This document shows positions 15,132 to 57,572 of a DNA stretch of 64,000 bases, in pieces (within the stretch, counting starts at the first letter, position 1; the number at the start of each line of letters is the position of its first letter). A program made the translations under genes and the position numbers. The notes below the pieces were generated by a model that did not search any database, was not told where the DNA came from, and saw nothing but the letters and a program-made list of their open reading frames with translations. This stretch comes from Escherichia phage vB_EcoM_VR26: sequence record NC_028957.1. One strand, written 5' to 3'.

Positions 15132-15818
15132 TTAAATGCCTCTAAATTCATATATTAAAAGTTTAAGTGCACTAGGGGTTGTTTCGTATTTCCCTTTAAG
15201 TGCTTTAACCACGGCAGTTGCCCCACCGGGTTTACCTAATGAAAGCCAAATCTGATAGATTTCACTTTTCAACGGTTCATGCCAATGGGCAGCGGTTCTT
15301 TGAGCTTTAGATGTGGCTTCTGATACGATTTTATTTCCACCATTTGCGTAAAACTCATTCATTGCTTCTGATTGTCTGGATTTGCGTTCAGGCCTATTTT
15401 GAGCGGTGCTTTGAGCTTCCTTCATTTTGGCTTTGGTTTTTGGTTTGTTTAAACGCAATGTTTGGGCCAACTTCATTTCGTCCGTCCATTCGTATCCTTC
15501 ACCACCCTGTCCACCGGGTAAAATATTAATACAATTTGAACCATGTTTAGAATTTAATAATGATATTATATATCTTTCATGTTCAAACATCATTTCCCGA
15601 TTCTGGTGACCTACAAACCAACGAATTTTATATTTGACCCCATATTTTTTATAGATATTCCAAAGTATTTTTCCAGAGCCAGGATATCGGTCTTTATTTG
15701 GGTCTAATACATTGGTCTCATGTTTACCACCATACCAAAAAACGCCTTTCGGCGTTTTAACTTTAATTATATAAGTTCTATAAAATTTTGCCTTAATAGC
15801 CATGGTCCTGGCGCTCAA
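15132..15818 (-). CDS. GIY-YIG homing endonuclease (SegF-like)
   Basis: 228 aa; N-terminal YIIKVKTPKGVFWYGGKH GIY-YIG-like; basic C-terminus; lies between soc and 56 where T4 has segF. Confidence 0.6.
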   Translation of the reverse strand: MSARTMAIKAKFYRTYIIKVKTPKGVFWYGGKHETNVLDPNKDRYPGSGKILWNIYKKYGVKYKIRWFVGHQNREMMFEHERYIISLLNSKHGSNCINILPGGQGGEGYEWTDEMKLAQTLRLNKPKTKAKMKEAQSTAQNRPERKSRQSEAMNEFYANGGNKIVSEATSKAQRTAAHWHEPLKSEIYQIWLSLGKPGGATAVVKALKGKYETTPSALKLLIYEFRGI

Positions 15819-16311
15819 AGTTGGCTTTATTTTTCAGATAATAAAGCTTGAATATTTCTTCTGCTGACATATTAAGACCAATAGCCATGTTGAATACAAA
15901 GTGCATAATGTCAATTAGTTCAAATTTAATTTCAAGCTGGTCTTCAGGAGACATTTCTGAAATTGGTTTAGATTGAGCTTCGGTATAACGAGCTTTCCAT
16001 TTTTTCCACACAGCAGACGCGTCTTTCTCACCTTTAGACATTTCACCGAGAGAGGTCAGAAGCTCACGGAATTCGTCATCAATACAATCTTTTTGTTCGC
16101 GCATCCAGGCAACAACATCACCCGCGGTGGACAGTTTATCTGGATGATAGCAATATTCTCGGTCATTAGCCAAACGAACCTGCAATGATTTCTGCATATC
16201 AAGCATTACTTGCAGTGGGTCTTTATCTTCGTGAATCAGAGCATTAAAATATGCTTCTTCGGCTTTGTCAACACCAGCAATCAGTTGTGAACATTCATTA
16301 AAATGTGCCAT
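15793..16311 (-). CDS. 56: dCTP pyrophosphatase (MazG-like)
   Basis: 172 aa; N-terminus MAHFNEC and overall sequence match recalled T4 gp56. Confidence 0.9.
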   Translation of the reverse strand: MAHFNECSQLIAGVDKAEEAYFNALIHEDKDPLQVMLDMQKSLQVRLANDREYCYHPDKLSTAGDVVAWMREQKDCIDDEFRELLTSLGEMSKGEKDASAVWKKWKARYTEAQSKPISEMSPEDQLEIKFELIDIMHFVFNMAIGLNMSAEEIFKLYYLKNKANFERQDHGY

Positions 16312-17825: not shown

Positions 17826-18044
17826 AGTTTCCTCATTTCAATGGTCCCAGAGGACCATTATACTGTAGGTTTATCGTCTTTGTTCTTACGCTTTTTTGAT
17901 GGGATTTGTTCAGGACCTTTATTGACAACTGTCCCGGAAGTGGTACCTGTTGCGATATTAGTTGGGTTTCCGCCAGCGTCACCAGCAACCATATCTTCGT
18001 TGATAAAATCTTTGAATGTTTTCATAACACCCCCTTTCCGCTAT

Positions 18045-23747: not shown

Positions 23748-24251
23748 TTAGTTAATACCTTGACGAGCTTTCTCTTTAGCTACACATTTATTAATATAGC
23801 TCAGACGGTTTTGAGCAGAACGCTGATACATATCGCGATACTCATTAGCCTTAGGAGAACCTGTCTCTGCTGCCTGATAAGCTTCCGCACGCATGATGTT
23901 TATCTGCATATTGATGTATGACATGCAAACCTGTGAAATCTGGTTAACAGTATCCAGGTCATTTTGTCGCTTGGTTTCTGCTTCCAGTTTGGCAATGATT
24001 TCGTCATGCTTCGCAGCTTGTTCGCGTTTGTACTCAATTTCACGTTGAGCATATTTTGCGCAATTGTTTCCACATTGATTATTGGCGCGTTTGTAGATAA
24101 GTCCAGTGCCACCTTTGAAATCAAAGGAACCATTATGCACCTGACGGTCTGCAGCAATTCGCGCTTTACCAATCTCACTGGCATTAACTACATCACCCTG
24201 GTAAGCACAACCAGATAGCAGCATAACAGCTGCGATAGCTAACTTTTTCAT
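23748..24251 (-). CDS. lipoprotein, unknown function
   Basis: ATG at 24249-24251 (MKKLAIAAVMLLSGC) with AGGAAA SD; lipobox LSGC; occupies T4 beta-gt/42 locus. Confidence 0.5.
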   Translation of the reverse strand: MKKLAIAAVMLLSGCAYQGDVVNASEIGKARIAADRQVHNGSFDFKGGTGLIYKRANNQCGNNCAKYAQREIEYKREQAAKHDEIIAKLEAETKRQNDLDTVNQISQVCMSYINMQINIMRAEAYQAAETGSPKANEYRDMYQRSAQNRLSYINKCVAKEKARQGIN

Positions 24252-24399
24252 TTTATTTCCTAATTGAAACATTCATAACGGGCTTGGAGCCCCAAAAATA
24301 CCCAACCCAAAATTAAAGTTGGAATCATATGCGGAGTCATTATTGCCCAATAGATTGACATACAAAAAAATGCAATCAGTACAATAATTGTAATTATCT

Positions 24400-55733: not shown

Positions 55734-56260
55734 TATTGCATTCCTATCACAAAGAATAGCGGTAAAGGCTTAGCGCCTTGACACATAAATTTATTCATCA
55801 TTACCTGATAAGCTTCATAGAACTTATCCATCGCTGGAAGTCGCATGGGCTCTTCGATAATAATCAATAATCGAGTAACAGATAATCCACGATACTTATG
55901 GAAGTTATCTTCGTCTAAAAATGAACGAACGGTATCATAGGCGATAAATCCAGGGCGTTCTACTTGAAGATGTGGTTGTGCCTTAGAAACCTGTTTTATT
56001 ACATTACAGATTTCTCGTGAGCGATGTGAAGAACTCGACATAACAATCACATCATTACCCTTAGAAACCCAATCTGCTGCAAACTGCGCAAGGGCACTTG
56101 TTTTACCTGTTTGACGACCACCGTCAAGTCGAAGAGTACCAAACTCTTGCATTCTTGAAGCAGGTTCATACCAGGTGTATTGGTCTGAATCTAAGCGTTC
56201 AATGGCGCGTTCAGCGAAGGCGTGCATTAAGGTTAGATAAATTGGAGTTAAAAATTTCAT
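55733..56260 (-). CDS. P-loop NTPase-like protein
   Basis: 175 aa; Walker A-like GGRQTGKTSAL; hydrophobic IIIEEP resembling Walker B. Confidence 0.45.
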   Translation of the reverse strand: MKFLTPIYLTLMHAFAERAIERLDSDQYTWYEPASRMQEFGTLRLDGGRQTGKTSALAQFAADWVSKGNDVIVMSSSSHRSREICNVIKQVSKAQPHLQVERPGFIAYDTVRSFLDEDNFHKYRGLSVTRLLIIIEEPMRLPAMDKFYEAYQVMMNKFMCQGAKPLPLFFVIGMQ

Positions 56261-56421
56261 AGTTGTCTCTTAGTTGTAGGGCCATTCCTTGGCACATTAA
56301 TTCGTCCATGTATCCGAATGTAAACCCCTTACCGCACTCGGGCTCGACCTTATTACAGGTAGGGAAAGGTCCATCACTCAGAGGACACGACGTTCATGAG
56401 GAGAGGGTCGGTTTGCCTTTA

Positions 56422-56724
56422 TTAAAAAGAACCAGAGCCTTTAATTGTGTTCTGGCGACCTTTATTTTCTACTTCAGAATGGTCGATTTCGTATGCTTGT
56501 GCTACGCCAAAGGCCTTTTTAACTTTAGCTAAAGAACCTTTAGATGTAACAATATTAAAAGTATTGCCTTTGGTAAAATCAACCAAATCCACTTGCACCC
56601 CTTGTTTACCGAGGCTTGCTACAATAGCATCAACATATTGTTGGTCTAAATTGCCTTGAACCCCAATTTGAAATGCTTTAGGAACTTTAGCAGATTCAGT
56701 AATAAATTCTTGATATGTTTTCAT
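56422..56724 (-). CDS. capsid internal protein (IP family)
   Basis: 100 aa; N-terminal capsid-targeting sequence MKTYQEFITES. Confidence 0.7.
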   Translation of the reverse strand: MKTYQEFITESAKVPKAFQIGVQGNLDQQYVDAIVASLGKQGVQVDLVDFTKGNTFNIVTSKGSLAKVKKAFGVAQAYEIDHSEVENKGRQNTIKGSGSF

Positions 56725-56737
56725 ATTGTTTCTTTAA

Positions 56738-57052
56738 TTAAGCTTTAGGGAAATCGCGCAAAAACGCATCATAAAGTTTATTACCAATGCGACGGAATGC
56801 TTTTGCCGCATGAACGTTATCTGGGTTTGCAATTTTAATCTGCATTACATGACTACCAGCCCATGATTTAGCTTCGTCATAATAACCTTTAATTTCTTTA
56901 ATAGTCTTGCGTTTTCCACCAGGACCATCGACAGTAATTTTCCACGAACCAGTGCTTGTTTCACTTGGTGGGGTTAACTGTTCAATCCAGACATAACCAC
57001 CTTCAACACGTTGTTGAGTAGATTCAGTAATAAATTCTTGATAAGTTTTCAT
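56738..57052 (-). CDS. capsid internal protein (IP family)
   Basis: Starts at internal ATG 57050-57052 giving MKTYQEFITES; track N-terminal 13 residues are leader. Confidence 0.7.
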   Translation of the reverse strand: MKTYQEFITESTQQRVEGGYVWIEQLTPPSETSTGSWKITVDGPGGKRKTIKEIKGYYDEAKSWAGSHVMQIKIANPDNVHAAKAFRRIGNKLYDAFLRDFPKA

Positions 57053-57100
57053 TTTATATTCCATTGTTTGGTTGATAAAATCATTATACAACCTTTTTAG

Positions 57101-57517: not shown

Positions 57518-57572
57518 GTTTGTTCTCCGTAGTTGATAGGGTCATTATAACCCTATCGTTTGGAGATGTAAA

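Follow-up and report, generated by a model that had tools for sequence, protein, structure and literature searches.

The capsid-targeting leader shared by two tandem internal-protein genes of a VR7-like T4-type phage is also a point of cassette recombination

Internal proteins have long been described as a diverse set with only the targeting sequence in common (PMC3012670), and reports count at least 10 of them (PMC12373910). For incorporation into the head the N-terminal 10 residues of T4 IPIII suffice; residues 4 and 7 of the T4 leader are the main determinants of targeting, residues 8 and 10 those of processing, and gp21 cuts after Glu in the motif L/I-x-E (PMC9026906). T4 Ip1, Ip2 and Ip3 are inhibitors of GmrSD type IV restriction enzymes, with a different enzyme for each and no cross-protection among them (PMC12373910). 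The closest known systems to the pair of genes described here are ip10 and ip7 of Escherichia phage vB_EcoM_VR7 (Gaprivervirus, Tevenvirinae), ip7 of T2 and Ip10 of phage Pol.

The window, by which we mean the whole 64,000-nucleotide stretch of Escherichia phage vB_EcoM_VR26 (NC_028957.1) that was analysed, contains these two genes and their leaders at the following positions:

56738..57052, minus strand: ip10 gene, an ORF for a 104-aa precursor counted from the conserved ATG; predicted mature form 94 aa, 10.5 kDa, pI 9.6
57023..57052, minus strand: capsid targeting sequence of ip10, codons 1-10 (MKTYQEFITE), with predicted gp21 cleavage after Glu10
56422..56724, minus strand: ip7 gene, an ORF for a 100-aa precursor; predicted mature form 90 aa, 9.6 kDa, pI 9.3
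56695..56724, minus strand: capsid targeting sequence of ip7, codons 1-10 (MKTYQEFITE)

On the minus strand the gene order is nudE, e, denV, ip10, ip7, vs.8, so that the pair sits between denV and vs.8, near e and nudE, in one of the two variable internal-protein loci of the T4-type genome. The corresponding order in T4 is e-ipIII-ipII-denV-vs.8, whereas that of the window is e-denV-ip10-ip7-vs.8; a location adjoining e and denV is common to both. T2 differs in carrying ip7 at the other internal-protein locus, near 57B.

The window locus is 98.7% identical to that of VR7, whose annotation names the genes ip10 and ip7. The first ORF encodes a protein 100% identical to VR7 Ip10, and the product of the second is 97% identical to Ip7 of both VR7 and SP18 and 45.6% identical to that of T2 (E 1e-13). 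Ip7 matches phrog_2667, 'internal head protein' (2.8e-42), and Ip10 matches phrog_3966 (1.8e-32); the two families comprise 282 phage records, T2 ip7 among them, and 188 phage records, respectively, and neither protein has a family in Pfam or NCBIfam. Judged by their sequences, the ORFs are orthologues of ip10 and ip7, which are annotated as internal head protein genes in VR7-like (Gaprivervirus) T4-type phages. The original prediction, made from the DNA letters, had called them tandem internal-protein genes, and the orthology with VR7 ip10 and ip7 and with T2 ip7, together with the PHROG 2667 match, bears this out. That identity is already known, being annotated in near-identical phages, and is ordinary for the T4-type group.

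Both ORFs begin with MKTYQEFITES and lie where the original prediction had placed them. The two window leaders are identical to MKTYQEFIAE of T4 IPII and IPIII at 9 of 10 positions, A9T being the sole change; Y4, F7, I8 and E10 are kept, with aromatic residues at positions 4 and 7, and I8-T9-E10 in each provides the L/I-x-E motif, followed by Ser. The functional targeting sequence of T4 is 10 residues long, and by analogy the mature proteins would start at Ser11, leaving that residue outside the tag; other leader-bearing ORFs have Ser, Ala, Thr, Asn or Gln at position 11. AF2 models Ip7 with residues 1-12 disordered. Genes for gp21, gp22, gp67, gp68 and gp23 are present in VR7, the nearest relative; gp21 and gp22 of the window phage lie beyond the 64-kb window. 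The predicted packaging of the ip10 and ip7 products into the capsid, their cleavage after Glu10 and their injection are well supported by homology. The searchable literature yielded nothing usable on virion proteomics of Ip7 or Ip10, VR7 or JS98, and no experiments on Ip7 or Ip10 (virion, cleavage or target). A second I-x-E triplet, I-K-E at residues 51-53 of Ip10 (56894-56902, minus strand), also fits the gp21 rule; in the model it falls within a strand and may be inaccessible.

Beyond the leader the two proteins diverge completely, as had been predicted: BLASTP aligns residues 1-13 only, and hhalign aligns 15 leader columns only. Remote homology of the Ip10 and Ip7 bodies was rejected on the same grounds, since hhalign extended to nothing other than leader columns. 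The comparison with T4 that the original prediction had proposed gave a divided answer, in that the leaders match IPII and IPIII but the bodies show no similarity by BLASTP; this comparison was with IPII and IPIII. The mature bodies of IPII and IPIII are thus unrelated in sequence to those of the window, although what surrounds them is shared: the 10-residue targeting sequence with its I-x-E gp21 motif and a small basic mature protein, the size of about 10 kDa and pI of 9.3-9.6 resembling IPII in particular.

Structure prediction produced a confident compact alpha/beta model for Ip10 (AF2, pLDDT 84) and a model of moderate confidence for Ip7 (pLDDT 68.6) with a beta-alpha-beta-beta-alpha-beta fold; the two predicted folds are unlike each other. 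Foldseek with the Ip7 model returned only generic ferredoxin/ACT-like matches in the PDB, at E 0.01 or worse; the Ip10 model had no counterpart among PDB folds and matched nothing but its own family in BFVD; the best PDB E-values across both models were 0.01-0.05. A sequence-profile search of the PDB with both proteins gave nothing below E 0.49. Pooled pN/pS across Gaprivervirus was 0.03 for ip10 and 0.06 for ip7, indicating strong purifying selection, and because of these values we regard both as real, constrained proteins.

At the DNA level the leaders form a direct repeat of 42 nt, the copies of which are 90% identical:

56686..56727: direct repeat copy 1, leader-coding DNA of ip7
57014..57055: direct repeat copy 2, leader-coding DNA of ip10

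Across the leader-coding DNA itself, 32 of 33 nt are identical between ip10 and ip7. The probability of at least 10 identical codons out of 11 is about 0.004 if the peptide had been encoded twice independently with the codon usage of the window, and the nucleotide identity of the leaders therefore exceeds what a common peptide alone explains. One could suppose that the pair arose by local tandem duplication, after which the bodies diverged while selection kept the leader, with no exchange of cassettes; such an origin would suit two neighbouring genes that share an orientation and are alike in length. We nevertheless hold it to be very improbable. Leader DNA that is nearly identical in front of bodies that have no similarity points to recombination or conversion rather than to ancient divergence; the predicted folds of Ip10 and Ip7 differ, as far as the models can be trusted; each body has its own widespread family in other genera, T2 ip7 even lying at the other locus; and the leader is the site of the deletion junctions mapped below.

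Eleven Gaprivervirus-type loci were compared for their cassettes, with ip10 denoted A, the ORF127c-type gene B and ip7 C. VR7 has a third cassette, ORF127c, between ip10 and ip7, which is absent from the window. The arrangements were:

ABC: VR7, SP18, TH41, TH54
AC: window, TH40
BC: ECML-359, P479
AB: UPEC01
C only: vB_YenM_P8

When leaders and upstream DNA were aligned, the junctions of the AC, BC and C-only forms fell in the leader or in the next 7 nt; the mapping covered these three forms. In P479 the upstream region of A is fused to B, and in P8 the A upstream region with an A/B-type leader is fused to the body of C. In both the window and TH40 the upstream region of B is fused to C, although the two differ in where the switch occurs: that of TH40 is within TATCAAGAATTTAT, and that of the window is past ATTACTGAATCT, within GCTAAAG, which leaves an additional codon:

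56692..56694, minus strand: extra Ser11 codon (TCT) in ip7, absent from 12 of 12 aligned homologues and from the Gaprivervirus ip7 genes examined

Relative to VR7, then, the ip7 of the window has gained a Ser at position 11, and its leader and upstream DNA are those of the ORF127c type. Ser11 of ip7 is a recombination scar from a neighbouring leader, that of either the ORF127c-type gene or ip10, making this a hybrid leader. An exact look-up found no record in public assemblies of a protein identical to the hybrid Ip7 of the window. We considered the deletions in the window and in TH40 as two independent events, but did not find this secure, since an upstream variant is common to both; a single deletion followed by leader-to-leader conversion and two independent deletions are equally likely.

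The same leader was found in front of at least 20 unrelated cargo clusters, in a small sample consisting of 28 viral contigs plus references. In VR7 a second internal-protein locus adjoins 57B, at 67.9-69.5 kb and past the end of the window, with five leader-bearing genes (ORF156c, ip9, ORF154c, ORF153c and ip6), one of which, ORF154c, is a paralogue of the ORF127c-type cassette. Given these five genes, a phage of the VR7 type would have about 7-8 internal proteins.

Together these data show the leader, by homology a targeting tag, to be also a recombination point, between copies of which cassettes are lost and presumably gained. The original prediction had proposed a site of host-range adaptation, with divergent cargo behind a fixed targeting sequence. 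The pairing of a tag with divergent cargo is the established view (PMC3012670, PMC9026906, PMC12373910) and holds here; divergence in place does not, the bodies being conserved. Because the bodies are under strong purifying selection, adaptation would proceed by gain, loss and exchange of cassettes and not by divergence in situ.

The freedom with which cassettes come and go also bears on what the proteins do. It may be that they are packaged but, as abundant basic proteins, serve mainly in head assembly, or in neutralising or organising the packaged DNA, and do not act in the infected cell: both mature proteins are basic (pI 9.3-9.6), and in T4 polyheads build up in IPIII-minus mutants and in triple-IP mutants, gp22 is recovered together with the internal proteins on purification, and about 300 copies of each are present per head (PMC9026906). 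A structural requirement would not, however, yield ABC, AC, BC, AB and C-only forms within one genus; cassette B, their neighbour, encodes a protein that is not basic (pI 6.2); and all three T4 internal proteins have specific anti-restriction targets (PMC12373910). We consider a mainly structural role unlikely.

Expression signals were also sought around the pair. No T4-type late promoter, TATAAATA, is present between 55 and 59 kb, a scan for the sigma-70 consensus gave fewer matches than in shuffled sequence, and Rfam had no match on the ip10-ip7 locus. One candidate was picked out by reading the sequence:

57083..57088, minus strand: possible -10 element TATAAT; the ip10 start follows 30 nt downstream, and GCTT lies 14 nt before the element

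This TATAAT, which the consensus scan missed, might serve ip10 as a -10 element, a weak inference; the timing of ip10 and ip7 expression is likewise inferred. Upstream of denV there is a strong early-type promoter, TTTACA-17-TATAAT (11/12; 57544-57572, minus strand), whose -10 element lies within a hairpin of 7 bp, GATAGGG...CCCTATC, and T4 has the same arrangement; we take this to resemble the 'promoter-early stem-loop' cassettes of T4-type hyperplastic regions.

The lack of a late promoter consensus upstream of the ORFs would fit a reading in which the common N-terminus simply reflects a conserved translation-initiation region, the proteins being small, early and cytoplasmic and never packaged. 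We give this the least credence of all the explanations weighed here, if only slightly less than tandem duplication: T4 ipII and ipIII have early-type promoters and no adjacent TATAAATA, yet their products are virion proteins, and the same 10 residues suffice to package foreign proteins in T4 (PMC9026906, PMC3012670).

We reasoned instead that ip10 and ip7 are, with good probability, cassettes of the variable e-side locus encoding packaged, cleaved and injected proteins of presumed anti-defence function, with the leader as portable homology. Homology with T4 IPIII suggests that residues 1-10 of each precursor, MKTYQEFITE, would bind the gp22 scaffolding core of the prohead, and that the prohead protease gp21 would then cut after Glu10 in the I-x-E motif. 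The product, basic and of about 10 kDa, would remain with the DNA inside the head, and its copies would probably be many. The mature protein would enter the cell together with the DNA, where each would most likely bind and block one specific host defence nuclease, by analogy with Ip1, Ip2 and Ip3. Near-identical leader DNA would meanwhile act as portable homology, recombination between leaders dropping, and presumably adding, cassettes; the window phage would be one outcome, with an ip10-ip7 arrangement that lacks the middle cassette of VR7 and has a hybrid leader on ip7.

On the T4 precedent, Ip7 and Ip10 would most likely each neutralise one host defence protein. With T4 Ip1 (IPI*), Ip2 and Ip3 the window pair shares the delivery device and the presence of several unrelated cargoes per phage; it differs in that no similarity of sequence or fold was found, the direct sequence comparison covering IPII and IPIII. 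Silas et al. (PMC12373910) mention neither Ip7 nor Ip10.

A caveat to this analogy concerns the DNA of the phage itself. The test against modification-dependent restriction systems that the original prediction had proposed builds on the glucosyl-hmC chemistry of T4. Searches of the window by tblastn with T4 queries gave no match to gp42 or beta-gt, though the syntenic uvsX-imm-43 interval is within it, and their place is taken by another gene:

23748-24272, minus strand: 174-aa lipoprotein-like ORF (MKKLAIAAVMLLSGC...), occupying the uvsX-imm interval at the T4 gene 42/beta-gt position

VR7 has the same arrangement, 42, a-gt and b-gt all being absent from the part examined, 21.5-41 kb. The window does encode the gp56 dCTPase (15796-16311), 80% identical to that of T4. 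For Gaprivervirus, two papers report no known hmC synthase and the retention of dCTPase, denA, denB and alc, and suggest some other modified base (PMC8056088, PMC12115623). Glucosyl-hmC, the substrate of the enzymes that the GmrSD-inhibitor class blocks, accordingly has no genes at the T4 gene 42/beta-gt position, and because gene 42 and beta-gt are missing from the window and Gaprivervirus has no known hmC synthase, the glucosyl-hmC/GmrSD scenario is not simply transferable. The lack of a known hmC synthase with retention of dCTPase, denA, denB and alc suggests that Gaprivervirus DNA probably carries some other cytosine modification. A more speculative proposal, which we regard as doubtful, is that Ip7, Ip10 or both inhibit a nuclease class recognising the Gaprivervirus modification, or a defence unrelated to modification; if true, these would be new anti-defence specificities delivered by a known leader.

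Two other elements of the window are less ordinary than ip10 and ip7: a leader-bearing gp23 mimic, gp61.1, and a strongly conserved element downstream of ip7. Their positions are:

17858..18025, minus strand: gp61.1, 55 aa
56261..56421, sense on the minus strand: ip7-vs.8 spacer, 161 nt, unannotated

The gp61.1 protein begins with MKTFKDFINE, a leader-like sequence with F4, F7, I8 and E10 that is in the range of genuine leaders (compare MKTFKEFINE of T2 Ip7), and its later part aligns with residues 55-91 of gp23, a segment that spans the gp23 maturation cleavage site (BLASTP against VR7 gp23, E 8e-09). It is conserved in about 1,400 phage records, some annotated 'major capsid domain-containing protein'. 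On these resemblances gp61.1 could be an unrecognised gp21 substrate or a capsid-targeted, packaged peptide.

The spacer has a GC content of 49%, against 39% for the window, and is found at 80-90% nucleotide identity in about 1,000 records from at least seven Tevenvirinae genera, with vs.8 directly following in every case. About 40 nt of it, the core ACCTGTAATAAGGTCGAGCCCAAGTGCGGTAA, are shared with rV5-like Vequintavirus and with EcoPhCCP1, a 44-kb phage. The spacer had no match in Rfam, in a tRNA scan or in the E. coli genome, neither single-sequence folding nor two RNAalifold runs led to an assignment or revealed covariation, and it has no conserved reading frame. In the annotation of T4 the spacer forms the first 41 codons of vs.8 (219 aa; T4 piece 1790-1913, window 56150-56425), a frame that is not conserved in other phages and that the window could match only with two frameshifts. 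The annotated start of T4 vs.8 is probably wrong, the true start being Met42 (MRTFLTGPYLSLMNAF), equivalent to that of the 175-aa vs.8 of the window. The 5' end of vs.8 exists in two allele types that cross genus boundaries, TH40 carrying the T4/NBG1 type.

As elements, ip10 and ip7 add no new kind, both being already annotated in near-identical phages; what this analysis adds is a clear case from nature in which cassettes have been lost through recombination inside the targeting leader. A warning comes with it, namely that the T4 model of glucosyl-hmC and GmrSD may not hold for Gaprivervirus. Of all phage proteins the internal ones enter the cell first, and each of the three in T4 is now known to disarm specific restriction enzymes; the cassette content of a phage helps to predict its host range, for example when phages are chosen for therapy.
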